Positions 6,488 to 50,733 of a stretch of DNA of 64,000 nucleotides are shown here, one piece after another (positions within the stretch are counted from its first letter, which is position 1; the number at the start of each line of letters is the position of its first letter). The position numbers were made by a program, and so were the translations under genes. The stretch is from Escherichia phage vB_EcoM-ZQ1. The stretch lies in sequence record MW650886.1; one strand, written 5' to 3'. Below the pieces are notes generated by a model. That model was not told where the DNA came from and did no database searches. It worked only from the letters and a program-made list of their open reading frames with translations.

Positions 6488-6823
6488 TTATTTTTGAACT
6501 TGGGCTACAGACATCGCCCAGAGCGGGAGGGTGTGGGGGTCCAGGGCTTCCAGTAGATATTCGACGCGCTCTGACATGATACCTTCAGGGAAGTTTACTT
6601 CTTCTGGTTCGTTGTTGGCCGTCCAACCCAATGTCAGTCCTTCAGCGTGATGGATGATATAAACGAAGTCGTCTGGTTCGTAGTCCTTTTCCATCAGGGC
6701 GAAGAAATCTTCCATTTCTTCGTCGGAGAAGTAGTAGATGCGAGGTACAGAGCCGTCAGCAAAGTGCTCAGCACCCTGGAAGGCAAACATGTCATCGGCG
6801 GTGAAGTTCTTGAGTTGTGTCAT
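6488..6823 (-). CDS. hypothetical early protein (111 aa)
   Basis: ORF with conserved leader ...GGAACTATATC-ATG and upstream early promoter. Confidence 0.55.
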   Translation of the reverse strand: MTQLKNFTADDMFAFQGAEHFADGSVPRIYYFSDEEMEDFFALMEKDYEPDDFVYIIHHAEGLTLGWTANNEPEEVNFPEGIMSERVEYLLEALDPHTLPLWAMSVAQVQK

Positions 6824-6929: not shown

Positions 6930-7568
6930 TTACGGCGTCGGATTCACAACCGGAATGTGGGATCGAATACCTGCGATGATGTCCTTCAGCCGAGGATTCC
7001 ATCCACCCACCAAACGGGGGAGAGCGATAGCGCCAGGCTGGACCAAAATGATGTCGCTGCCTGTGATATTGTGCTGAGGGAACTGAGCAAGGTACTGCTC
7101 CATGGCGACACCCTCATCAATCAGAACAGGACCGACATCAGATGACGCGTAGGTTGCACCCAGACCGTCAACGCCCCATGCCAAGATACCCCAGTCAGGG
7201 ATGTTGGCTTCAGATGTGATGGTGAATCCAAACACGGTGTTCAGCGAAGTAAAGGAATAGACATCGTGGGTGATGTCATACACCAGATACCCCTTGGCCA
7301 GCATATCGGCAAAGATCGCGTCCGTATCGCCAACAGCCGGAGTCGGCACAGTAAACAACAGCTCGCCATCAGGAGGAGCAGGATACGTGCCGAGGGCATA
7401 GAGGCACCATGCATCAATGCACTTCTTAATGAACGCCTCTGGCGCGACATAATCAGCAAGGCGAACCGTACCTGAGTACTCTGATACGATAATGCCTTCC
7501 TTCGCACCCTGTAGAGCAATGAAGACCAAGATATGTTCATATCCGGCCTGAGATGGAGTGATGTTCAT
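6930..7568 (-). CDS. hypothetical protein (212 aa)
   Basis: ORF; internal ATG 7568 overlaps stop of upstream gene. Confidence 0.5.
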   Translation of the reverse strand: MNITPSQAGYEHILVFIALQGAKEGIIVSEYSGTVRLADYVAPEAFIKKCIDAWCLYALGTYPAPPDGELLFTVPTPAVGDTDAIFADMLAKGYLVYDITHDVYSFTSLNTVFGFTITSEANIPDWGILAWGVDGLGATYASSDVGPVLIDEGVAMEQYLAQFPQHNITGSDIILVQPGAIALPRLVGGWNPRLKDIIAGIRSHIPVVNPTP

Positions 7569-8182
7569 TATCTTGTCCTCTTCAGTTTCTCTATTGTGTG
7601 CTTGTTCATGGCGATCACCTGAGGATCTACCTCGGAGATGGTCCGGCCTTCGAAAGACACACATTTCTGAAGATATTTAGCTTTCTTCACGACGTCGGCA
7701 GCATAAGCGTTCGATGCAGGATTACGGGCGAAGCCAGCATTGTAAGAGGAGAGGGATTTGCGGATATTCTGATTGTGATAGGTCAGCCAGAACTGCATCT
7801 CATCGAGGGCGGCTTGCGCGGCATATTCTTGGTCGGTCAGCAACTTTATGGCGACATTGGCATAGCACTTGCGATTCTTACAACCTTCGCGATCACCAAC
7901 TGTCTTCACCTTGTTCTGAAAGGCTCCCATGTTGGCCGCCTTGAGACCGTATCGCATTGACACTACATCTTCACCAGCGCGGCTCTCTCGCCAAGATATG
8001 GCGGCCAGAGTGTAGCCAAGATCTTGTGTCTTGCCTACGTGATAGGCGGTTGCCATCGTATTAAGTTGTTGCTCGGAGAAATTATAAACACATTGACTTG
8101 TATTTTGGGAAGCGTGCACATTCCCGCTGGCAATGGTAAAGGTCACGGACAAGGCCATGGCCTTCAACGTTGTCATCGTCAT
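7568..8182 (-). CDS. secreted protein, possible lytic transglycosylase-like
   Basis: N-terminal signal-peptide-like segment; weak ES...GAFQ motif. Confidence 0.4.
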   Translation of the reverse strand: MTMTTLKAMALSVTFTIASGNVHASQNTSQCVYNFSEQQLNTMATAYHVGKTQDLGYTLAAISWRESRAGEDVVSMRYGLKAANMGAFQNKVKTVGDREGCKNRKCYANVAIKLLTDQEYAAQAALDEMQFWLTYHNQNIRKSLSSYNAGFARNPASNAYAADVVKKAKYLQKCVSFEGRTISEVDPQVIAMNKHTIEKLKRTR

Positions 8183-17260: not shown

Positions 17261-17923
17261 TTACACCTCCACCGCGTGAGACTTCAGGAGTTCATCAATC
17301 TCTTTCTGTCCCATGTATGAGAACGGGGTGCGCTGGTAGAACGCCCAGAGTACTAACTGGACAACAGCACGGGAACGGGTTTCGGCCGTCATCACCAGGC
17401 CACTGAAATGAGGAGACTCAGCTGTCCATTGTATATCTTCGCCCAGGTCTTGATTACAGGTCACCGAGATGCGGAACTTGTTGCACAGATTGTCGACTTC
17501 TTTGTACGCATCGGTAGACACACGAAGTTGTTCCGCATGTACCCACGGAGTTGTGATGATTCTTTCACCCAACGTCTTTTCTGAAACGAACCAATCAATA
17601 GATTGGGTAAACTCGCTGAAATGGTCGATACGATAAATGCAGTCTCCCCCTTCCATAGAACGCATGGCATGATAGCGAGCGTCGATTTCGTTGTTGTGCA
17701 TCGCGTTGAAGTCGATGAACACGCGACGCGCCAGCACAACATCTTCTGGTTGAAGTGCCAGGAAATCGTTCAGGCGGCTATAATGGAGGATATTGGAACC
17801 GTCGTGGCCACGTGTGCAATATGCGTAATGGCTACCGATACGGGCGTGGGCAATATAAGACAACGGGGCGAAGAATAATCCGTCAGGATCAGGACCGACG
17901 ATAATAGAATAAAGTTTTTCCAT
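17261..17923 (-). CDS. hypothetical protein (220 aa)
   Basis: internal ATG 17923 preceded by conserved ...GACTATATC-ATG leader. Confidence 0.5.
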   Translation of the reverse strand: MEKLYSIIVGPDPDGLFFAPLSYIAHARIGSHYAYCTRGHDGSNILHYSRLNDFLALQPEDVVLARRVFIDFNAMHNNEIDARYHAMRSMEGGDCIYRIDHFSEFTQSIDWFVSEKTLGERIITTPWVHAEQLRVSTDAYKEVDNLCNKFRISVTCNQDLGEDIQWTAESPHFSGLVMTAETRSRAVVQLVLWAFYQRTPFSYMGQKEIDELLKSHAVEV

Positions 17924-17979
17924 GATATAGTCACTCAAATGAAAGGGCAGCTTTATGATAAGCCGCCCGAGGTTATTGA

Positions 17980-18849
17980 TTATTGGAAATCGCCAACATA
18001 CATGTTCAGCTTGTCGTCCCAATTCAGAACGACACGGATCGTTCCGGTATCTTCTGGGAAGGTCAGTTTGTCGCACATGGCGCGATTAACATAAGTCCCA
18101 CTCTGGTTCACGTTGTAGTCCTTGCCTTGCATGATACCGAAACGCTTGAAGTCGCGAGTGACCATCATGTTCAGAGTTGTCCAAGGGATTGCATCGCGCA
18201 GGGCTTTGCACAGGACGATCTTGCCATCCGACCTGAACGACACAAACAGCTCGTTGGCGACACGACGGCGAGTAGGCGGTTCAAGTTCACGCAGGGAAAT
18301 GAATTGTGAATTCTTTACCTTTTCTGCCAGCGCCTGTACTTCTGTTGGATCCGGCTTGAACGGCTCCACTGAAGAGTCAGACTTCATCACAACGTCACCC
18401 TTGCGCTTCTCAACCAATTGCTCCACAGCCTTTTGACTCACGGGCGGGAGGTATTTGGACTCAGGAACAACCGCTGGCTTGATGACAGGGCTTGCATCTG
18501 GTTTCGCCTTTGGGGTACTCCGAGCCGCACGCAGCTTTTCCTGGGCTTCCAGAATGCGCTCTTGACGAGAAAGTGGAGCCTTTGGGGTGATCTTCGTACT
18601 GAAGTCAGAAACGCCGACCCAGTCACCCTGGTCATTACGCTTGGCGACCAGAGTCAGTTTGTGAATGATACCCTGAAGTTTGCTCTCACGTAAGTTGTCG
18701 GCATACCAGAACTTCGCGCCCATCTCGAACTTCTCGGCGAAGATCACGCGAGCGTCTTCGTGTACCAACATAACTTTGGCTGCGTTGGGGGCAAAAGCCT
18801 TATTCTTTTCGATAATCGCCGCAGCGATTGTTTTGGTCAGGAGCATCAC
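17980..18849 (-). CDS. hypothetical protein (289 aa)
   Basis: ORF. Confidence 0.5.
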   Translation of the reverse strand: MMLLTKTIAAAIIEKNKAFAPNAAKVMLVHEDARVIFAEKFEMGAKFWYADNLRESKLQGIIHKLTLVAKRNDQGDWVGVSDFSTKITPKAPLSRQERILEAQEKLRAARSTPKAKPDASPVIKPAVVPESKYLPPVSQKAVEQLVEKRKGDVVMKSDSSVEPFKPDPTEVQALAEKVKNSQFISLRELEPPTRRRVANELFVSFRSDGKIVLCKALRDAIPWTTLNMMVTRDFKRFGIMQGKDYNVNQSGTYVNRAMCDKLTFPEDTGTIRVVLNWDDKLNMYVGDFQ

Positions 18850-18885
18850 GGTGTATTCCTTCAGTTCACAATGTAGGGCTAAATT

Positions 18886-19215
18886 TTAACCCGAAACTTT
18901 ATTTTGAAATCCGACAAAGTCCTGGGCAATCCCCCGGCAATACATCAGGTCTTTCTTCGTTTGTGGACTGTTGTCAGCCGCAGTCAGCATCATGGGAAGG
19001 TCCAGCGCATTCTCTATCTGATCAACACTGAACAGATCAAGGCGCTTCAGCTCTCCCTCGAAGTCAGACAGTAGGATAGATGTGTCTTTGTCATCTGGGT
19101 GGAACTGCTGATACGTCTCCATCCATGCCACACATGTGTTCAGTTTGGACGGTGGCGCGGCGTTTACACACCCGGCTATCAGTACCAACAAGAGCAGGAT
19201 TTTACATTTCATCAC
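18886..19215 (-). CDS. putative lipoprotein / secreted protein (109 aa)
   Basis: signal peptide with lipobox-like LIAGC. Confidence 0.45.
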   Translation of the reverse strand: MMKCKILLLLVLIAGCVNAAPPSKLNTCVAWMETYQQFHPDDKDTSILLSDFEGELKRLDLFSVDQIENALDLPMMLTAADNSPQTKKDLMYCRGIAQDFVGFQNKVSG

Positions 19216-19898
19216 TCGTTCTCCTTCATCATATTGTCGCAGTCAACACGAGTCTGCTGGAGTTCGCGCGACATGCGGGGATCATCAAGGTTCACGCTCA
19301 GATTCGTGGCCAGGTCTTTCAGACCGTTCTGAACCCTGTCTTCAAAGTAATAATCGTTCTCAACCAGCCAGGCTCTGAGACCAAGAGCGCGGGTGCGCCA
19401 TTCCTTCTTCAGGACGCGATCAGAGGTCTGCGTAGCGCTGTATTCGAATACTTTGACGCACTGGTTGCCATCGTTGATGAGGTTCAGGTGGCGGCGACCA
19501 ACCTGCACACCCTTCTGTAATGCCGGAGAAGGGAGCGAACGGCACTGTCTTACGGTCATTCGGCCTTGGGTGCCCATTCGGCCAGTCATGATTAAATCGC
19601 CAGCCTCCATGCCTCCACGGTTAAATTCGTCGTCATTGAGGTAGCCCTTGAGGTTATAGGCTCCCTGTTTGTAACGGTTGAACTCAATTCCGGCATTGAC
19701 GACAGCAGTGGAGACGTTGCCTGTGTTCCAGAGTTCAGCGAAGTTCTCTATGGAACCAGACTTGTCGATGGCAACCGCCTGGGAGAACCCAGCACAATAG
19801 GAAAGGTCGGACCACAGTTTATCACCTGTGGAGTTCAGCTTGGCAGCGGCGGGTAATGCCAGACCAGCCAGCACAACCCCGAGGATTAAACGTTTCAT
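19212..19898 (-). CDS. secreted protein (228 aa)
   Basis: internal ATG 19898 with AAGGAG RBS; signal peptide MKRLILGVVLAGLALPAAA. Confidence 0.5.
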   Translation of the reverse strand: MKRLILGVVLAGLALPAAAKLNSTGDKLWSDLSYCAGFSQAVAIDKSGSIENFAELWNTGNVSTAVVNAGIEFNRYKQGAYNLKGYLNDDEFNRGGMEAGDLIMTGRMGTQGRMTVRQCRSLPSPALQKGVQVGRRHLNLINDGNQCVKVFEYSATQTSDRVLKKEWRTRALGLRAWLVENDYYFEDRVQNGLKDLATNLSVNLDDPRMSRELQQTRVDCDNMMKENE

Positions 19899-19926
19899 GG
19901 CGATTCTCCTTATTTCATTGGATGAA

Positions 19927-19955
19927 ATGATAGGCGGCTCACCATGATGAGTAAA
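19927..19955 (-). promoter_or_regulatory. T4-type early promoter (-35 TTTACT, -10 TATCAT)
   Basis: TTTACT - 17 bp - TATCAT upstream of gene 19212..19898. Confidence 0.4.
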
Positions 19956-19977
19956 GGGATTCAATAAACTATCGTAT

Positions 19978-20427
19978 TCAGAAACGGGTATCGCTGACCG
20001 TTCTGTATCGCACACCCTGAAACTGTTTAGCGAGTCTAACAAATTCCATCGCTGGTAAATCAACTTTGTAGACCTTCATGCGCTGTTTGCCGTCCATGTT
20101 CAACGCAGCGACAAATCGGTGAGAACCGTCAACAACGTAATTGTCAGAAGACACCCAAACTCGACCCATAGGTTTCTTATTTCTGATCTGCTTCATAATC
20201 TTCCAGACCTTCATTTTATTGATTTCGTTCTGGGTAAGACGAAGCATTTTGATGGGCACTTGCGCAGCATCTATGGACACGCCGTTGTCTTCAAGATATT
20301 TGTGAAAATCTTCTTGTTTGTCGGCATCGATTTGCGGCATAGAAGAACGAGAAAGCCCGAGGTTCCCAACAGGGATCCTCAGGCCGTTAATGATGTTCAA
20401 CCAGTCAATAAAGGATGTAAGGAACAT
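19978..20427 (-). CDS. ParB/sulfiredoxin-like nuclease domain protein
   Basis: VVDGSHRFVAA motif (ParB-N DGxHR). Confidence 0.5.
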   Translation of the reverse strand: MFLTSFIDWLNIINGLRIPVGNLGLSRSSMPQIDADKQEDFHKYLEDNGVSIDAAQVPIKMLRLTQNEINKMKVWKIMKQIRNKKPMGRVWVSSDNYVVDGSHRFVAALNMDGKQRMKVYKVDLPAMEFVRLAKQFQGVRYRTVSDTRF

Positions 20428-20459
20428 GACACACCTCGGGATATAGGGTTATCCCTTAG

Positions 20460-20651
20460 TTAGCGCATCCATCGATCCTTTCTCTCTTTCTCCTTGCGTT
20501 CGCGACGTTTCTGGTCGGATCGGAATAACCAATAGAAGAAGTTCCCACCCAAGATGAAAACCACCGCGATTATTACTAGGACACCCTTCACAATTTCCCA
20601 AACCAATTCTTTATCCAAATTATACCTCGTCTTCTTCAGGTCCACCGTCAA
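20460..20651 (-). CDS. small membrane protein (63 aa)
   Basis: one hydrophobic helix followed by basic tail. Confidence 0.35.
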   Translation of the reverse strand: MTVDLKKTRYNLDKELVWEIVKGVLVIIAVVFILGGNFFYWLFRSDQKRRERKEKERKDRWMR

Positions 20652-20907
20652 TCAGGATACGAGCGGTGTCGAAAGTTTCCCCGCCCGTGTTCAGCAGCTT
20701 GGTTAGATCATCAAGAGTACCGACAGGGCCAAGATCAGATGACCGCGATATAAACTCCAGCATGCCATACAACGCTGTTTGGAATCGGCTGTTGTCGATA
20801 TCGTTCTTTATTACCATCAGGCGCAAGATGTTCTCTGACTGAGTATGGCCAACACACGCCTTGTCTCTGATCATCTCCTTGATAGAACTTCTCTCTGATG
20901 GTGTCAT
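20620..20907 (-). CDS. hypothetical protein (95 aa)
   Basis: ORF. Confidence 0.4.
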   Translation of the reverse strand: MTPSERSSIKEMIRDKACVGHTQSENILRLMVIKNDIDNSRFQTALYGMLEFISRSSDLGPVGTLDDLTKLLNTGGETFDTARILIDGGPEEDEV

Positions 20908-21278
20908 AACGTACCCCCGACAGAGATCAAGAACTCTTCTTGCATGGTCTTGACCGGGTGGTGGTTGCGGGTTTCGAACATGAAGCCCCAGCCACCGTCG
21001 GCGACGTTACCAAAGGTCTTGACACCAAAGGACTTCGTCCCGTTGGAGCAGGAATAGATGTCCAGGACGTATGGGCTACCCTGATTGTCGATCCCACGAT
21101 TCACGTCGTCTGATACACAGCGCTCAATCATCTTCCCGTTCTTATACAGAACGAGGTCTTGACCATACGCCTTGAAAGCATAAACACCGTTGGTAGACAC
21201 TCCGGTGATGACAGGAGGGGCGGAAACAGCAGCAAAGGAAGCGCCTAGCAGGGCAACAGCGAGGATTAACTTTTTCAT
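20904..21278 (-). CDS. secreted protein (124 aa)
   Basis: conserved leader ...GACTATATC-ATG; signal peptide MKKLILAVALLGASFAAVSA. Confidence 0.5.
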   Translation of the reverse strand: MKKLILAVALLGASFAAVSAPPVITGVSTNGVYAFKAYGQDLVLYKNGKMIERCVSDDVNRGIDNQGSPYVLDIYSCSNGTKSFGVKTFGNVADGGWGFMFETRNHHPVKTMQEEFLISVGGTL

Positions 21279-21302
21279 GATATAGTCTCTTGGTTTCAAA
21301 TG

Positions 21303-21324
21303 GGCGGGGTATGATTACCCCGCC
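21303..21324 (-). terminator. stem-loop terminator (repeat copy)
   Basis: ggcggggta-tgat-taccccgcc hairpin; near-identical copy at 21863. Confidence 0.45.
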
Positions 21325-21330
21325 GTGGGT

Positions 21331-21837
21331 TTATAGGGTAACAAGTGATACGGTAAAAACCATCGTCCCGTCTGTTGCCATTTTTCTTGAAACTGGTATG
21401 ACGCGAGGCTGGCAGAATATCCATTCTTTCTCCATGGACGCCAAGTCCAGCATATCCATTTCTGATTCATCGCCTTTGTTCACAAATTTTTCTAGAGAAC
21501 CATAGACATTAAGCCCCTCCGGGAGTCTGTTTCGATGTTTGTAACAAATGCGGGCAACAGCTTTGGTTCCGTACGATTTAGAAAATTTTTTGGCCACATG
21601 CTTCAGTTCACTGAAGCTAAGACAAGAATCCCATGTCTGGAACATGTCGCCTCGTTCAAACATCATCTCTAAACGCGCAACGTCCTCTTTAGGCAGCCCG
21701 CGATAAAGTGTGGTCGTCTGTGGTTCGCGCAATTCTTGCACCAGATCACGGACGGCAGGGGAAACAGTACCGGGGCGCATGATGTGGGACTTATCATGGA
21801 CGAGGTAAAATAAATCTTGAATTTGTTGATCAGTCAT
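21331..21837 (-). CDS. hypothetical protein (168 aa)
   Basis: conserved leader ...GGAACTATATC-ATG. Confidence 0.5.
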   Translation of the reverse strand: MTDQQIQDLFYLVHDKSHIMRPGTVSPAVRDLVQELREPQTTTLYRGLPKEDVARLEMMFERGDMFQTWDSCLSFSELKHVAKKFSKSYGTKAVARICYKHRNRLPEGLNVYGSLEKFVNKGDESEMDMLDLASMEKEWIFCQPRVIPVSRKMATDGTMVFTVSLVTL

Positions 21838-21862
21838 GATATAGTTCCTGCATTTCAAATAG

Positions 21863-21884
21863 ACGGGGTAATCATACCCCGCCC
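21863..21884 (-). terminator. stem-loop terminator (repeat copy)
   Basis: cggggta-atca-taccccg hairpin. Confidence 0.45.
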
Positions 21885-21896
21885 AAAGTTATAGAA

Positions 21897-22136
21897 TTAG
21901 CTGATATGCTTCAGAAGAGCGAAGAGGATCACGGCCTTGGCCTTTACCTTTCCTACGATGCCTGTCTCGACATCAACTTCTTCAGCAACCCACTCTTTTC
22001 CCTTCTTGCTGATGATAACGTCACGACGCTGTGCGTAGACTTCTTTGGTCGCATACACACGACGGAACCCTTTAGCGCGGAGCAATCCCCAATTGCGATC
22101 AATCTCTACTGAAGTTTCGACCATTTTGTTCTTCAT
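21897..22136 (-). CDS. hypothetical protein (79 aa)
   Basis: ORF with upstream early promoter. Confidence 0.45.
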   Translation of the reverse strand: MKNKMVETSVEIDRNWGLLRAKGFRRVYATKEVYAQRRDVIISKKGKEWVAEEVDVETGIVGKVKAKAVILFALLKHIS

Positions 22137-22187
22137 GATATAATCTTACCTTTCAACCCGGTGAACCCATCGTTCGCCAGTTATTGA

Positions 22188-22216
22188 ATAATAGGACATT
22201 CCTTAGAGGAAGTAAA
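22188..22216 (-). promoter_or_regulatory. T4-type early promoter (-35 GTTTAC, -10 TATTAT)
   Basis: GGTTTACTT - 17 bp - TATTAT. Confidence 0.5.
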
Positions 22217-22228
22217 CCCCTAAAAGTA

Positions 22229-22254
22229 AAAATCCCCAACGTTTGTTGGGGATT
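22229..22254 (-). terminator. stem-loop terminator (42-bp repeat copy 1)
   Basis: aaatccccaac-gttt-gttggggattt hairpin. Confidence 0.5.
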
Positions 22255-22269
22255 TAATAAAAGTTATGC

Positions 22270-22494
22270 CTATTTAATTTCTCGGCTTGAATTTTCTAGT
22301 TCTAATTTTCTTATAGCAGAAATTCTGCCTTCATCAGTTGCGGGAAACTCCCAAACAGCACGACGCCCGTTGTTGGTATCACAACTTGCCAGCCAGCAGA
22401 AATTAGAGGGGTCCTTAAACAAGACCAATTTAGGGTTAGCAATATTGTTCAGGCAAAATGGGGTGAGGTCAACAACACATGATATAGCAGACAT
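22270..22494 (-). CDS. hypothetical protein (74 aa)
   Basis: ORF flanked by 42-bp perfect direct repeats; start ambiguous between 22494 and 22479. Confidence 0.4.
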   Translation of the reverse strand: MSAISCVVDLTPFCLNNIANPKLVLFKDPSNFCWLASCDTNNGRRAVWEFPATDEGRISAIRKLELENSSREIK

Positions 22495-22543
22495 AATATA
22501 TACCTTCTTTCAATGAACGGGAACGCCCCGCTCTATGAATTCA

Positions 22544-22572
22544 ATAATACGCATTTACATTATAGAAGTAAA
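22544..22572 (-). promoter_or_regulatory. T4-type early promoter (-35 GTTTAC, -10 TATTAT)
   Basis: GGTTTACTT - 17 bp - TATTAT. Confidence 0.5.
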
Positions 22573-22584
22573 CCCCTAAAAGTA

Positions 22585-22610
22585 AAAATCCCCAACGTTT
22601 GTTGGGGACT
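22585..22610 (-). terminator. stem-loop terminator (42-bp repeat copy 2)
   Basis: ccccaac-gttt-gttgggg hairpin. Confidence 0.5.
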
Positions 22611-22614
22611 TCTG

Positions 22615-22938
22615 TTATTTGCGCAGGGCAACCACGAGTTCAGCGAGTTCACCCATGGTCGGGTCATCGCCTTTACTACCCAGCCAACCGTCGTCGATTT
22701 CGACCTGAAACTCTTCTTCTAGTTCCATTACGATTTCGATGGCATCCAGTTCGTCACCACCGAGGTCTTTCTTGGTACGGAGGCCAGCCAGCTTGTCCAG
22801 GGCGTCCTCGTTCTGAGATGCCACGTCGTCCAGCAATTTGCGCTTGTCATCGTCACGCCACAGATCCATATTCAGATTGTCAGTGGCGTACTGAGCCAGA
22901 TGACGCATGACTTCAACATATGTTGGTTTACTGCTCAT
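22615..22938 (-). CDS. acyl carrier protein homolog with Ser to Glu at the phosphopantetheine site
   Basis: DLGGDELDAIEIVMELEEEFQVEIDD aligns to E. coli ACP [27 protein letters not shown]; DSL replaced by DEL. Confidence 0.6.
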   Translation of the reverse strand: MSSKPTYVEVMRHLAQYATDNLNMDLWRDDDKRKLLDDVASQNEDALDKLAGLRTKKDLGGDELDAIEIVMELEEEFQVEIDDGWLGSKGDDPTMGELAELVVALRK

Positions 22939-22979
22939 GTTATTACTCCAAAGAAAGGCGGGTTGCCCCGCCCGTTGGA

Positions 22980-25181
22980 TTAGATTTTGATTTCTTTCTC
23001 TGTCAGTTCGGCAGTGACCTTGTACTTCACGCCATCCACTTCAACTTCCATGGTGGACTCTTCCAGGTCGAGATCGGTGAACCAGCCATGGCCAGCAACG
23101 ATACCATAAACCACTTTAGACAGCGTCTTGTTCAGGGCACGGACTTCGGTGATGGCCGCCTTGGCAGCAGCGTCGATCCAGTTTTCGATCAGCTGTTTCT
23201 GTAAGGCTTCAGGCACGGCAGTGATCATAGGAGACTTCACGAATGCTTCGTACTCCTTCAGCGCATTGGCGATGAACAAGTCACCAGCATTGAGTTTCTT
23301 GTTCTCGGCAATCTTCTTCTGTACCGCTGCGATAGACGGTAGAGATGAAGCGCCAGCGATCTTCACGTTCAGCTCACGGCTCATGTAGAAGTCGGTAGAC
23401 TCTTTGGTCTCAGTCTTCGGTGAGAATCCGTAATCGCGGATGCCGTAGGAGGACAGGAACTCGGCCGCCTCAGCGCCGTACTGTACTGCCAGGCCTTTGG
23501 CGTTACCCTTACCAACCAGGGCGTCTCGATAGAACTTCAGCACCTTCTGCTTGCCTTTCAGGGCTTCCAGACGGACATTATCCGCAAAGAACTGAGCAGC
23601 ACTGATGTTCTTGACCATGGCGCGGTTGACCAGCGGTACGCTTTCCAGGTTCAGGACAAACACTTCCGGACCACCAAACACGTGGACGCCCATTTCGATC
23701 AGCTTCTGTACAACTTCGATATCAGCCTTGAACGGTAGAGTCTTCACGTTAATGATACCGTCTTTGACGATGGTGTAGTTGCGCCACTGGAAAGTATCCA
23801 GTTCTTCAGGCAGGCCAAACTTCTTCTGTGCGAATTCAGGCACAGCCACAGTACCGTGTTGAATTGTACGCACGCTGATGTTCGGGCGCTCGGAGTTATA
23901 GACCAAATCGCTGATTGGCACAACACCCAGGTCGTTGGTAGGTTCGAACGTCGGGTTCCACTCTTCGTGTTCTGCCAGCTTGAGAGCCAGGGCTTTACGC
24001 TCTTCTTTGGACTGAGCATTCGCGATCTGTTCTGCCAGCTTGTCTTCGGTGTCGTCGGTTTTCTGCACAGTACCGCGCCCGATGCTCTTATAGGAGAACA
24101 TCGGATGCTTGGTAGCAACAGGCACACCAGCTTCAGCCAGGTACGTCAGCACGTCAACGACGGTCGTCGCATCTTCAGCCGGAACCAGGTCATAGTCAAT
24201 ACCGTCAACGCCGCGCAGCTGGTCATCAACGATGGCCTGGGTCAGATCGTTCTTGATGTTGGAGTAGTCCTGCTTGGTGAAGCAGTTGCTGTACTGTTTG
24301 ATGAAGCGAACGTCGCCCGTCTTCTTCAGCGCAGCCCAAACCAGATCTGCGTCCATAGTGTGTACGCCGTAGAACGCCAGCACATATGCCGCCTGGATGT
24401 CCGTCAGGCTATCCATCTGGTCGATCATGTTGGGGTTTACAACCCACAGCTTGGTGACGCTCTCAGGGATGCTCACGTGGCCGATAGGATGGTCTTCATC
24501 CGGCTGTACCGCCAGCACAGTTGCTACGCCGTTTTCAACATAGATGGCGTGGGTGTATAGCAGAGGCACATCAACAACCACCTTCGGCACTGATGACTTC
24601 AGCACGTTTTCCAGTTCGGTCTGGTATTCGGTCTGACCTTCGGCAAACACGTGAGTTGCGCCAGAGCGCTCGGACATCTGCGCCAGCAGTTCACGGTTAC
24701 AGTGCCAGCCGTATTCGATGAAAGTAATGTTATCGAACGCGGAAGGAAGTTTTTCGGCGGTATCCAGGATTTCATTGGAGTGCCAGCAGTTGTCATAACC
24801 ATCGGTCATGAATGCCAGGTTGTTGACGTAGCCAGGTTTCTTCAGGTCACGCGCAGTATCCATCGCCAGTTTCAAAGGCTCAACAAAGCCAGTACATCCG
24901 GACGGTTGCAGGAAGCGATCGATCAGTTTGTTCAGCTCGCTCAGGTCAGACGCAGCACTAACCTGGCGGCCAGCGAACACAGTACCAAAGTCTCCTTTGG
25001 AGGAGAAATACAGAACGCTCACAGTGTCTTCCGGTTTCACCAGGGAAGGCAGGTTCTCCTTCAGATGCTTACGGACTTCAGGGAGCGCACGGTACATAGA
25101 GCCGGAAATGTCTACAACGATTACATGGTTGGACGGAGCAGCAGTCGCAACCGCATTCTTAAATTCTAATGATTCAATCAT
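22980..25181 (-). CDS. von Willebrand factor A (vWA) domain protein (~733 aa)
   Basis: MIDAS motif VIVVDISGSM near N-terminus; start at internal ATG 25181 with GAAGAAGG RBS. Confidence 0.6.
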   Translation of the reverse strand: MIESLEFKNAVATAAPSNHVIVVDISGSMYRALPEVRKHLKENLPSLVKPEDTVSVLYFSSKGDFGTVFAGRQVSAASDLSELNKLIDRFLQPSGCTGFVEPLKLAMDTARDLKKPGYVNNLAFMTDGYDNCWHSNEILDTAEKLPSAFDNITFIEYGWHCNRELLAQMSERSGATHVFAEGQTEYQTELENVLKSSVPKVVVDVPLLYTHAIYVENGVATVLAVQPDEDHPIGHVSIPESVTKLWVVNPNMIDQMDSLTDIQAAYVLAFYGVHTMDADLVWAALKKTGDVRFIKQYSNCFTKQDYSNIKNDLTQAIVDDQLRGVDGIDYDLVPAEDATTVVDVLTYLAEAGVPVATKHPMFSYKSIGRGTVQKTDDTEDKLAEQIANAQSKEERKALALKLAEHEEWNPTFEPTNDLGVVPISDLVYNSERPNISVRTIQHGTVAVPEFAQKKFGLPEELDTFQWRNYTIVKDGIINVKTLPFKADIEVVQKLIEMGVHVFGGPEVFVLNLESVPLVNRAMVKNISAAQFFADNVRLEALKGKQKVLKFYRDALVGKGNAKGLAVQYGAEAAEFLSSYGIRDYGFSPKTETKESTDFYMSRELNVKIAGASSLPSIAAVQKKIAENKKLNAGDLFIANALKEYEAFVKSPMITAVPEALQKQLIENWIDAAAKAAITEVRALNKTLSKVVYGIVAGHGWFTDLDLEESTMEVEVDGVKYKVTAELTEKEIKI

Positions 25182-26159: not shown

Positions 26160-28178
26160 TTAGAACACAACTTTCACAGTGCGGTTGAACGAACCGCTCA
26201 CCTTCACGAACACGTGGTTGCGTTGGGTGGTAGAGAAGCCCAGACCGGACAGCTGCTCAGTGCTTGGCTGTACTTTAATCTTACCACCTAACATTTCAAA
26301 AACCTTGCGGTGTTTATCAAGTTCCGGCTTCAGATATTCGTTATAGAAACCACGGGTGCCGACAGGGTTAGCACAACCTTCCAGGATGAAGAACACGTGC
26401 TTGTTGCCAGTCTGCTCGCCGTCCCAATGGTTTGGTGAGTTCAGAACCAGCTGTACCTTCTGGAAGACGGAGGTCTTGATACCCCAGATTTCCTGAGAGC
26501 GAGCGTCGTCTTTCAGGGTAGAACTGATGTCAACCACCTGACCAGCGCGAACCTGAACCACAACAGCCAACGTGCGATCTTTGTTACCCAGGCCAGGGTG
26601 TGAGAAGCGCTTAGTCTGACCTTTGTATTCAACTTCGATTTCGAAACCAACGTCACAGGTTTCACGCTTGTTGAAGTTGGTGACATAGAACTCATAATTC
26701 CCGTCGCGCAGCTTGCTTTCATCGCTAAAGAAGATGTTCTCCACCGGACGGCGGTTTGGATCAATGCCGTCCATACCGTTCATGTCGATGTCCAGAGTTG
26801 CGCCAGTTGACGAACGACGGTTGCGAAAATATACGTGGTTGTGAAGAGGATCGTTCATGCTCAGATCCAGGTCGTCGTTGTTATGCCAAGCCAGTGACAC
26901 GCGGAGGAAGCTGTCGACATTGCCGCCTGCGGTCTTCACGCGCTCTTTGATGGAGTCGGCCACTTCGCCATTGTACGACCAGCTGAAGCCGTTGTTCCAC
27001 TTGAACAGGTTAGGAGCGCCTGCGGTAGCCGGAGCGATCAGGGACATCAGGTTGCCAATGTGAGAGTTTTCAACCAGTACTTCCAGGGAATGCGCCTTTG
27101 GCAACACGTTGGTCAGGAAGTCGTCGATCGTGATCTCTTCAACCTTGTCCAGGGACTTGGTCGGAGTCTTCACTTCAGACGCCAGCTGAGCAAACGGGTC
27201 CATCTTCTTCTGAGCTGCCAAATCGGCGAACAGAACGTTGTTGATGGTCAGATCGTCATACACGGCATAACGGCGACCCAGTGAATCAGTCAGACCCAGC
27301 GCTTCGACTTCTTTCTGCGCGTTTTCAATCATCGACTTCGTGACCAGCGCGGTTGGGCGCTTGTAGTTCGTCGGAGCGACTTTGGCTTCAAAGGACTTCA
27401 CGGCGGTTTCCAGATCCCGGCCTTCATTGAGGTCTACCAGCAGAGAGCCAATCACGGTATTACGAATGCCGTGAGGGATATGACCGTTTGCACGGTAGCC
27501 AGTGCGCCAAGCCCACAGAGCGCGTTTCTCTTCTGCAGTTTGTTCGTACAGGGTCTTGTTCACCACGAACGCCTGCACTGCCGCTTTGTGCTCTTCACCG
27601 CGATACAGAGAATTCTGGTCAATCAATTCCAGAACGATTTCAGCCGATTCCAGAGACAGTTCACGCAGGCCGCGCTCAAACACTTCAATCGCCTGGCGGA
27701 TTTCACCCTTCTTAGAAGCGATGGTATCTGCCCGCAGAACATAGCTACCCAGCAGGTCGGTGTGGAAGTGGTTGTAGGTGCGGACAATACCGTCTTTCAT
27801 TTCGTGATTCGACCCAACACCAACTTTCTTGGTGTCGTTGAAGTACACATCGACGATTGCGTGCTGCTTAACATATGCTGACAGCGCCGCAGCGACAACG
27901 TCGTATTCGTTACCCAACTGAATGTTATCCCAGATAGAGATCACGTTCAGGTCGGAGTCGATGGTGACCACACCGCCGATATTACGGATGAATTGTTTAC
28001 AGCAGGTACAGTCGTGCTCGGTACGCTCACGATAAAGCGGGTTAGTGCCAGCAGGGAAAGAAGACAGATACAGATCCCACAGAGCATCTTTATCGATGTT
28101 GGTCATGAACAGACCAGTTGCTGACATGGCCAGCACGTTATTGTTGACAGCTACTGCGAAGGGCTTAAAATCTGACAT
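26160..28178 (-). CDS. large hypothetical protein (672 aa)
   Basis: long ORF; no polymerase or P-loop motifs recognised. Confidence 0.6.
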   Translation of the reverse strand: MSDFKPFAVAVNNNVLAMSATGLFMTNIDKDALWDLYLSSFPAGTNPLYRERTEHDCTCCKQFIRNIGGVVTIDSDLNVISIWDNIQLGNEYDVVAAALSAYVKQHAIVDVYFNDTKKVGVGSNHEMKDGIVRTYNHFHTDLLGSYVLRADTIASKKGEIRQAIEVFERGLRELSLESAEIVLELIDQNSLYRGEEHKAAVQAFVVNKTLYEQTAEEKRALWAWRTGYRANGHIPHGIRNTVIGSLLVDLNEGRDLETAVKSFEAKVAPTNYKRPTALVTKSMIENAQKEVEALGLTDSLGRRYAVYDDLTINNVLFADLAAQKKMDPFAQLASEVKTPTKSLDKVEEITIDDFLTNVLPKAHSLEVLVENSHIGNLMSLIAPATAGAPNLFKWNNGFSWSYNGEVADSIKERVKTAGGNVDSFLRVSLAWHNNDDLDLSMNDPLHNHVYFRNRRSSTGATLDIDMNGMDGIDPNRRPVENIFFSDESKLRDGNYEFYVTNFNKRETCDVGFEIEVEYKGQTKRFSHPGLGNKDRTLAVVVQVRAGQVVDISSTLKDDARSQEIWGIKTSVFQKVQLVLNSPNHWDGEQTGNKHVFFILEGCANPVGTRGFYNEYLKPELDKHRKVFEMLGGKIKVQPSTEQLSGLGFSTTQRNHVFVKVSGSFNRTVKVVF

Positions 28179-50704: not shown

Positions 50705-50733
50705 ATTATACGTGAGTTATTGAAGAAGTAAAG
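50705..50733 (-). promoter_or_regulatory. T4-type early promoter (-35 TTTACT, -10 TATAAT)
   Basis: TTTACT - 16 bp - TATAAT. Confidence 0.5.

Follow-up and report, generated by a model that had tools for sequence, protein, structure and literature searches.

Overlapping genes for a predicted periplasmic protein pair, annotated as spanins, in a cluster of small genes of an Ackermannviridae phage

Phages of the family Ackermannviridae (Vi01/CBA120-like) are widely used in the biocontrol of Salmonella, E. coli, Klebsiella and Dickeya, and their mode of lysis is only partly known. The two-component spanins to which some of their genes have been assigned, as known from lambda Rz/Rz1 and T4 PseT.3/PseT.2, are encoded by adjacent overlapping genes, the first for a helical product with an N-terminal hydrophobic segment (a type-II anchor followed by a two-helix coiled coil), the second for a short, often proline-rich lipobox protein bound for the outer membrane, the two being together long enough to span the periplasm. 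Other small phage proteins of the envelope include T4 Sp (spackle) and Imm, early proteins, periplasmic or inner-membrane, that act on the envelope of the infected cell (Sp being helical and Sec-exported), as well as T5 Llp and lambdoid Cor, lipoproteins of the outer membrane by which the receptor of the phage is masked. Here we describe six genes, A to F, every one on the minus strand, at positions 18886-21278 of a 64,000-nucleotide stretch of Escherichia phage vB_EcoM-ZQ1 (MW650886.1; hereafter the window). Our tentative proposal, to which we give a little less than an even chance, is that E and F, labelled as spanins in several records, specify a coupled, Sec-exported periplasmic pair acting on a target in the envelope; within this picture we are more confident of the topology than of the function.

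The genes at the centre of the argument, with the candidate promoter that lies among them, are the following.

19978..20427, minus strand: gene D, a 149-amino-acid, predicted cytoplasmic, single-domain protein of the ParB/sulfiredoxin fold, without signal peptide
19927..19955, minus strand: candidate sigma-70-like promoter TTTACT-N17-TATCAT, in the 79-nt gap between D and E, about 28 nt upstream of the start of E
19212..19898, minus strand: gene E, a 228-amino-acid precursor of a predicted exported all-alpha protein; signal MKRLILGVVLAGLALPAAA, then KLNS; isoelectric point (pI) 6.8
18886..19212, minus strand: gene F, a 108-amino-acid precursor of a predicted exported, acidic (pI 4.4), all-alpha protein of five helices

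A megablast search with positions 18000-22000 returned 274 phage records, all from Ackermannviridae (Agtrevirus, Kuttervirus, Limestonevirus and Taipeivirus-like), the best being Escherichia phage AV101 and Enterobacter phage fGh-Ecl02, both 97.7% identical over the full length. The window (GC content about 49%) thus comes from an Agtrevirus-like, Vi01-like member of this family and not from a T4-type phage (Straboviridae). The T4-like setting assumed in the initial annotation, made from the letters of the window, is therefore not right in the strict sense, though T4-type replication and late-transcription genes are present in the phage. PQ306799, a near-identical genome, has the cluster inside a long run of minus-strand genes for replication and recombination: a DNA helicase, an HU-like protein, RNase H, a late sigma factor and SbcCD are on one flank, and an ACP-like gene, a large ‘tail protein’ gene, a clamp loader and RegA on the other. 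Its annotated endolysin is some 20 kb from the cluster.

The start codon of F overlaps the stop codon of E (TGATG, one base being shared here), and an overlap of 1 or 4 nt is found in every one of the 26 related loci compared (L001-L026), including two metagenomic relatives in which E is down to 32-36% identity. This points to translational coupling of the two genes, whose adjacent and overlapping arrangement is also that of two-component spanins. The order D-E-F is likewise kept in 26 out of 26 loci, both metagenomic ones included. E itself is unusually well conserved, with 81.6-99.6% identity among the records listed and occurrence in 270 phage genomes from at least six host genera, and an exhaustive HMMER search of 1.84 billion representatives retrieved 10 E-family cluster representatives, all phage-like, and no bacterial homologue. 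Identity is nevertheless distributed as a mosaic along the three genes: Marshall is 83% identical in D and 99% in E and F, whilst L011-L018 are 97-99% identical in D and 71-73% in F (99% and 72%, respectively, in L011). The pattern indicates that genera have recombined here, with breakpoints on both sides of E.

Signal peptides were judged by an explicit set of rules for their n-, h- and c-regions, namely a basic n-region, a hydrophobic region of 7-15 residues, and small residues at -3 and -1, and all these features of Sec export and cleavage by signal peptidase I (SPase-I) are seen in the A, E and F families. A crude scan by these rules of the 707 ATG-started open reading frames (ORFs) of at least 50 amino acids in the window flagged 10, with the strongest hydrophobic cores (3.2-4.0) in A, E and F; the remaining seven look mostly like ORFs in non-coding frames. 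In homologues down to 33% identity it is the type of the signal that is kept and not its sequence. The three ORFs initially singled out for their signal peptides are the top three of the scan and have a conserved type of signal, and periplasmic export of A, E and F is supported by these sequence patterns, with removal of the signal as its presumed sequel. The mature parts of E and F contain conserved cysteines, four in E (C35, C119, C147 and C220) and two invariant ones in F (C27 and C92), as expected for proteins of the oxidising periplasm.

The hydrophobic region at the N-terminus of E is of just 12-13 residues. Ten divergent N-termini, reaching down to 33% identity, keep this region together with the helix breaker and AxA site that follow it, and all have a small residue at both -3 and -1. 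In this phage the signal ends in LPAAA/K, with proline at -4 (a slash marks the predicted cleavage point), and the ends seen among the homologues include LPAAA/K, LPVVA/K, LPATA/K, LPASA/K, SAPA/K, LPAHA/G, STSA/W, HASA/A and TANA/G. By this rule-based analysis E does not have the uncleaved N-terminal transmembrane (TM) segment, in a type-II (N-in/C-out) anchor, by which an i-spanin is held in the inner membrane.

The N-terminus of F (MKCKILLLLVLIAGC15VNA/APPS) holds a lipobox as well as an SPase-I site (VNA/AP). The lipobox-like sequence pointed out initially is thus indeed there, as LIAGC15 with valine at +2, i.e., an o-spanin type of lipoprotein signal with no aspartate at that position. 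It is, however, present in only 6 of the 36 full-length cluster representatives of F, Marshall's being LIAGC like the one here. The other 30 have at the same position a plain SPase-I site with A, T, S, E, V or Q before the proline; in P0085, for example, whose F is 93% identical, AGS stands in place of AGC. The xxA/xP site, on the other hand, is kept in 36 out of 36, and the cysteine that would be lipidated is only 4 residues from the conserved mature N-terminus. Since mature F is conserved (57-100% identity in the main family, 29-47% in the remotest relatives) whilst 30 of 36 representatives are devoid of a lipobox, the function of F cannot need a lipid anchor in the outer membrane.

AlphaFold was run on a paired alignment of 20 sequences (A4), with mature E joined to mature F by a Gly/Ser linker. 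E is modelled as some 10 helices of 5-25 residues, with a predicted local confidence (pLDDT) of mostly 80-90, and F as five helices with a pLDDT of about 85. A Foldseek search with this fused model found no fold match in the PDB (best E-value 1.7) and, in BFVD, only members of the Ackermannviridae family itself, among them Erwinia phiEa2809 and Serratia 3M. Nor did D, E, F or A yield anything meaningful when searched against the PDB by sequence and by profile; matches such as von Willebrand factor and Rab1A (E-values 0.3-1) were dismissed as chance. For all six proteins of the cluster, matches in Pfam, NCBIfam and PHROGs were only family-internal or sub-threshold. Judging from the models, E and F would be a family-restricted pair without recognisable fold relatives.

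The candidate promoter upstream of E keeps its hexamers in Klebsiella-phage loci (TTTACT-N17-TACTAT), where the spacer has diverged. The more general form TTTACT-N15-19-TANNAT occurs 6 times in the window, against 0.31 expected, always on the minus (coding) strand and shortly upstream of gene starts:

692-720, 19927-19955, 22188-22216, 22544-22586 and 50705-50732, minus strand: TTTACT-N15-19-TANNAT sites from the motif scan

On the strength of this pattern the motif probably represents the promoters used by the host RNA polymerase, i.e., the early promoters of the phage. The initial annotation had each gene of the cluster behind early promoters, which turned out not to be so: of the six genes, E alone has a sigma-70-like promoter directly upstream. 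Translation of B and of C is coupled to that of the gene preceding each. A and D come after hairpins without recognisable promoters and are presumably transcribed by readthrough from the strong terminator-promoter cassettes in the 22.2-22.6 kb stretch. TATAAATA, the late promoter of T4, is present just twice in the 64 kb and nowhere near the cluster.

If this interpretation is correct, the region would be a patchwork of small genes, situated in the replication-gene (early/middle) arm of the genome, with D-E-F as its conserved core. E and F would be co-translated from their own sigma-70-type promoter, both exported by Sec, both helical and probably disulfide-bonded. E would be released as a soluble periplasmic protein, as its signal suggests; F would be soluble too in most relatives, whilst here, a lipobox having been gained, it would probably be anchored in the outer membrane, on the inner leaflet. 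The two could then act together in the periplasm, from the early or middle stage of infection, on an envelope target and not as a membrane-spanning spanin, their most likely role being to protect the infected cell from superinfecting phages or from premature envelope damage. T4 Sp/Imm and T5 Llp supply the analogy by which a function in superinfection exclusion or in protecting the envelope seems the most plausible one; the initial annotation, likewise by analogy, had suggested superinfection exclusion or envelope remodelling. With T4 Sp and Imm the pair has in common the small size, the presumed early setting and the predicted export, but E and F are coupled, and no sequence, profile or fold similarity to either protein was detected. 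With T5 Llp and lambdoid Cor, F shares being a small phage lipoprotein predicted for the outer membrane, though in this lineage only; there is no homology, the lipid anchor is not a family-wide trait, and F is always paired with E.

Several considerations weigh against this proposal. Searches of PHROG, Pfam, NCBIfam, PDB (by sequence and by fold) and BFVD turned up nothing resembling T4 Imm or Sp, nor any other known protein of exclusion or one that acts on the envelope. The predicted TM-score (pTM) of the fused E-linker-F model, 0.49, neither supports nor refutes an E-F complex, whose formation we infer. The hydrophobic region of E, rich in Gly/Ala, may behave as a signal-anchor or signal-arrest-release (SAR) segment, cleavage being read from its pattern and conservation only. 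Early/middle expression of the cluster is plausible, but its timing is deduced from the promoter and the gene neighbourhood, and a search of the literature found no transcriptome or genetics for the cluster genes. Finally, in this particular phage a good lipobox in F and an adjacent E make up the very arrangement that lies behind the curators' spanin call.

That call is widespread. The pair goes by i-spanin and o-spanin, or by ‘Rz-like spanin’, in Marshall (gp94/gp95, E being the ‘i-spanin’ Marshall_94), PP35, moki, dinky and others, as well as in PHROG 3843, to which F belongs (phrog_3843 ‘Rz-like spanin’, E-value 1e-54), and a paper on Kuttervirus uses the label too, as does a core-genome table of Vi01-like phages. 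The survey of Kongari et al. 2018 (PMC6139136), from the Young lab, where the Marshall label also came from, counted only the Marshall pair, as a singleton family which, at 300 periplasmic residues, was the longest of the survey, and listed Vi01, Maynard, SFP10, SJ2, SJ3, CBA120, PhaxI, ECML-4, AG3 and Dickeya RC-2014 as spanin-less. The survey is inconsistent in its treatment of the family, Maynard being spanin-less and Marshall not, though their DNA is 93% identical here; one Maynard record names F a ‘conserved hypothetical lipoprotein’. The discrepancy between Marshall and its relatives is explained by the F of Marshall having LIAGC, when only 6 of the 36 F representatives have a lipobox.

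Could E and F nonetheless be a genuine two-component spanin, E anchored in the inner membrane and F lipid-anchored in the outer one, fusing the membranes at lysis? We consider it rather improbable. The overlapping gene order, with an upstream product that is all-helical in its model and hydrophobic in an N-terminal segment, and a strong lipobox (LIAGC, valine at +2) in the downstream product, is what one would expect of a spanin, and curated i-spanin/o-spanin labels exist. In addition, a scan of all start codons in the 150 kb of PQ306799 left F as the sole credible lipobox ORF, and the distance from other lysis genes is no obstacle, the T4 spanin genes being likewise unlinked to theirs (Kongari et al. 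2018, PMC6139136). Against it stand the short hydrophobic region of E, followed in every variant by proline and the conserved AxA, which makes the signal look cleavable instead of a type-II anchor; the number of F orthologues that carry an SPase-I site in place of the lipobox, in spite of mature domains 57-100% identical; and the shape of the proteins, as E has about 10 short to medium helices with 4 conserved cysteines where i-spanins have two long coiled-coil helices, and F is structured, acidic and, with 5.6% proline, not proline-rich. Together the two come to 300 amino acids, i.e., the maximum of the 2018 survey, in which the Marshall pair is an extreme length outlier and nearly all relatives are deemed spanin-less. 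The sigma-70-like promoter and the company of early genes differ, moreover, from the context of known spanins. Both spanin membrane attachments are thus probably missing in most of the family, and that to the inner membrane also in this phage. That F is the only lipobox ORF of PQ306799 would itself agree with a family that is spanin-less in the canonical sense. The literature searched holds no experimental report of E and F complementing lambda Rz/Rz1, or of lysis by a knockout. All in all, the periplasmic interpretation appears to fit the sequences better than the ‘spanin’ labels of the databases. This is of some consequence, since the label has spread from Marshall, via PHROGs, to many annotations and papers and to orthologues with no lipobox, and its failure on topological grounds in most of the family disposes of one false explanation for the way in which these phages get through the outer membrane.

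It is also conceivable, though doubtful, that there is no joint function at all, the cluster being a run of unrelated accessory genes (‘morons’) between essential ones, with E and F as independent periplasmic proteins and D unrelated to them. The presence or absence of A, C and a neighbouring 168-amino-acid gene among close relatives would fit with this, as would the promoter that separates D from E, the want of any family of known function among the cluster genes (in PHROG, Pfam and NCBIfam) and the identity patterns that differ between D and E/F in Marshall and L011, as if the block had recombined internally. The invariant order of D, E and F even in the most distant loci is, however, hard to reconcile with a chance assembly, and so is the universal start-stop overlap of E and F, whilst the high conservation of E over its 270 genomes argues for an important and not a dispensable function. 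About equally unlikely is that E and F represent an unrecognised, Ackermannviridae-specific class of periplasmic effectors with a new helical fold, acting either in exclusion and protection or as an anchor-independent disruptor of the outer membrane; the latter, if true, would explain how a ‘spanin-less’ family completes lysis. Taken by itself, the idea that E and F breach or weaken the outer membrane at lysis in a new way that needs no anchor, with a function like that of spanins or of the ‘disruptin’ of phiKT but another mechanism, strikes us as very improbable. In its favour are the listing of the family as spanin-less (PMC6139136); PQ306799, which has, besides F, no lipoprotein candidate, and in which neither a holin nor a spanin is annotated anywhere in the genome; and the tolerance of F to direct tethering to the outer membrane through a cysteine next to its mature N-terminus. 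The early-type promoter and context speak against it, as do the proteins themselves (pI 6.8 and 4.4), which are neither cationic nor like amphipathic peptides, and the idea is speculative, with neither experimental nor comparative support. What the E/F pair amounts to, on present evidence, is not a new kind of system but a correction to the annotation and a defined target: the cluster is real and was correctly described in the main, and E and F form a highly conserved, family-restricted pair, predicted to be periplasmic and without known fold, that offers a concrete object for experiment.

D, the third member of the core, had been described initially as a ParB/Srx-like protein with a DGxHR motif, and both the fold and the motif have been borne out. 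The motifs LRLTQNE.NK and DGSHR are invariant in an alignment of 21 sequences (A1) down to 39% identity. The AlphaFold model made from these 21 homologues (pLDDT 82.3, pTM 0.76) retrieves from the PDB, by Foldseek, a list whose top ~40 entries are all of the ParB/Srx fold, with a probability of 0.85-1.00 among the top 39 and a query-normalised TM-score of 0.38-0.47 over about 90 residues. They include the ParB-N of pNOB8 (E-value 1.2e-3), plant and human sulfiredoxin, Noc, CTP-binding ParB (ParB-CDP), SbnI, the serine kinase SerK, PadC and Atu1540. At the level of sequence the signal is weak: phrog_1033 ‘ParB-like partition protein’ is matched with an E-value of 0.002, and ParBc_2 (0.081) and ddrB-ParB (0.073) each by one of the 21 family members, below the gathering threshold, whilst D as query had no Pfam match and the PDB profile search found no ParB. 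The UniRef name of the family is ‘ParB/Sulfiredoxin domain-containing’, and D aligns inside long multi-domain PHROGs, namely phrog_2859 (316-467 of 740) and phrog_11358 (790-899 of 3431).

A role of D as partition ParB was rejected, as it is a single domain without the helix-turn-helix and dimerisation domains of such proteins, and no ParA-like gene is annotated nearby. The ‘cytidyltransferase’ label that it has in PQ306799 found no support in our searches. D is closer to the solo domains of the superfamily (the DdrB-like ParB of polyvalent proteins, PMC5512222; ParBc_2 Atu1540; plasmid Osa), with which it shares the alpha+beta fold, the conserved DGxHR loop bearing the arginine, the encoding by a phage and the stand-alone state without ParA partner. 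DdrB-like ParB was, however, described next to virion genes (PMC5512222), whereas D is found among early ones. Given that the superfamily holds CTPases/NTPases, kinases and sulfiredoxin besides nucleases (Iyer et al. 2017, PMC5512222), D may be a nuclease, an NTPase or a kinase, and the nuclease of the initial annotation is one candidate among these. Its alignment inside long multi-domain PHROGs recalls the polyvalent proteins of phages, whose ParB domains are presumed to take part early in conflict with the host (same reference). D would most likely be an NTP-binding or DNA-nicking enzyme of phage-host conflict. With it, a class of domains that has been implicated in such conflicts gains another member that stands alone.

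The remaining genes of the cluster lie upstream of D.

20904..21278, minus strand: gene A, predicted to specify a 124-amino-acid exported protein; signal peptide MKKLILAVALLGASFA, then AVSAPP; accessory
20620..20907, minus strand: gene B, 95 amino acids, acidic (pI 4.5), without signal peptide or transmembrane segment
20460..20618, minus strand: gene C, a predicted 52-amino-acid single-pass membrane protein with a TTG start; accessory

All the ORFs of the initial annotation were found where it had them, and all on the minus strand, but its list missed B (20907-20620, 95 amino acids), the sixth gene. A corresponds to phrog_5474, of unknown function (E-value 1e-52), and has no match in PDB, Pfam or NCBIfam; in its homologues (48-54% identity) the signal ends in AHA/D or AQA/D, and mature A has 2 cysteines in this phage. 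The ATG of B overlaps the stop codon of A (ATGA). B corresponds to phrog_4458, also of unknown function (E-value 4e-37), and is found in most related loci in divergent form (26-97% identity). As for C, the initial annotation was right in making it a membrane protein, but not in its length: the 63 amino acids given are those of the maximal ORF, starting at 20651, whereas a GAGG Shine-Dalgarno sequence precedes the TTG, and the same TTG/GTG start, kept in 4 divergent homologues, gives 52.

C is phrog_14464 ‘membrane protein’. Its TM segment covers about residues 11-32 (VLVIIAVVFILGGNFFYWLF, window score 2.66); a basic tail, RSDQKRRERKEKERKDRWMR, comes after it. The topology is holin-like (small size, a TM segment and a charged C-terminus) and there is a sub-threshold match to Pfam Phage_holin_2_4 (E-value 0.04, 14 bits against a cutoff of 30). 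Even so, C cannot be the essential holin missing from the family, as the gene is absent from most relatives, and it was rejected in that capacity for the family at large. A is carried by 104 phage records and C by 58, against the 270 for E; A, C and the neighbouring 168-amino-acid gene are variably present among relatives, and several loci leave no space between B and D for C. We therefore propose, from this distribution and the sequences themselves, that A, B and C are lineage-variable accessory genes, with A secreted and C inserted in the membrane.

Upstream of A there is a hairpin.

21303..21324, minus strand: GC-rich hairpin GGCGGGGTAATCATACCCCGCC, then CATTTGAAA, between the 168-amino-acid gene and gene A

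This hairpin has the look of a weak terminator or of the boundary of a cassette; the terminator scan did not call it, the T-run being too short, and no promoter was found there. The 168-amino-acid gene (21331-21837, minus strand) resembles phrog_832, ‘RNA polymerase ADP-ribosylase’, in the C-terminal part of that family (E-value 6e-15) and is bracketed by two 22-nt GC hairpins (GGCGGGGTA..ACCCCG) in opposite orientation, at 21303-21324 and 21862-21883. There is one copy of the hairpin in relatives without the gene and two in AV101, which has it, so that the gene looks like an insertion/deletion cassette bounded by hairpins. Further upstream, an exact duplication of 27 nt (22225-22251 and 22581-22607, minus strand) consists of a terminator-plus-promoter cassette, CCCCAACAAACGTTGGGGATTTTTACT followed by TTTACT-N17-TATTAT, whose two copies flank a 74-amino-acid ORF (22494-22270).

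On the other side of the cluster, the metagenomic relative L004 (ENA ERZ940655, a 156-kb contig) has, at 7237-8028 and two positions downstream of its F homologue, a gene with a Band_7/SPFH domain, of a membrane-associated family; in its place the window has an unrelated 289-amino-acid protein (17980-18849). No known RNA of Rfam was matched in positions 17500-23200. A recurrent leader, CATAAGCAGTACGACACCAACTTGAAA.G.AGGAACTATATC-ATG, or in a shorter core form ATTTGAA...AGGAACTATATC-ATG, precedes several small genes of the window, being found upstream of the starts at 6823, 39926 and 50656 and, in part, of those at 28178, 17923, 21278, 21837 and 22136. By its sequence and position, this leader would be a repeated translation-initiation or cassette-junction element.

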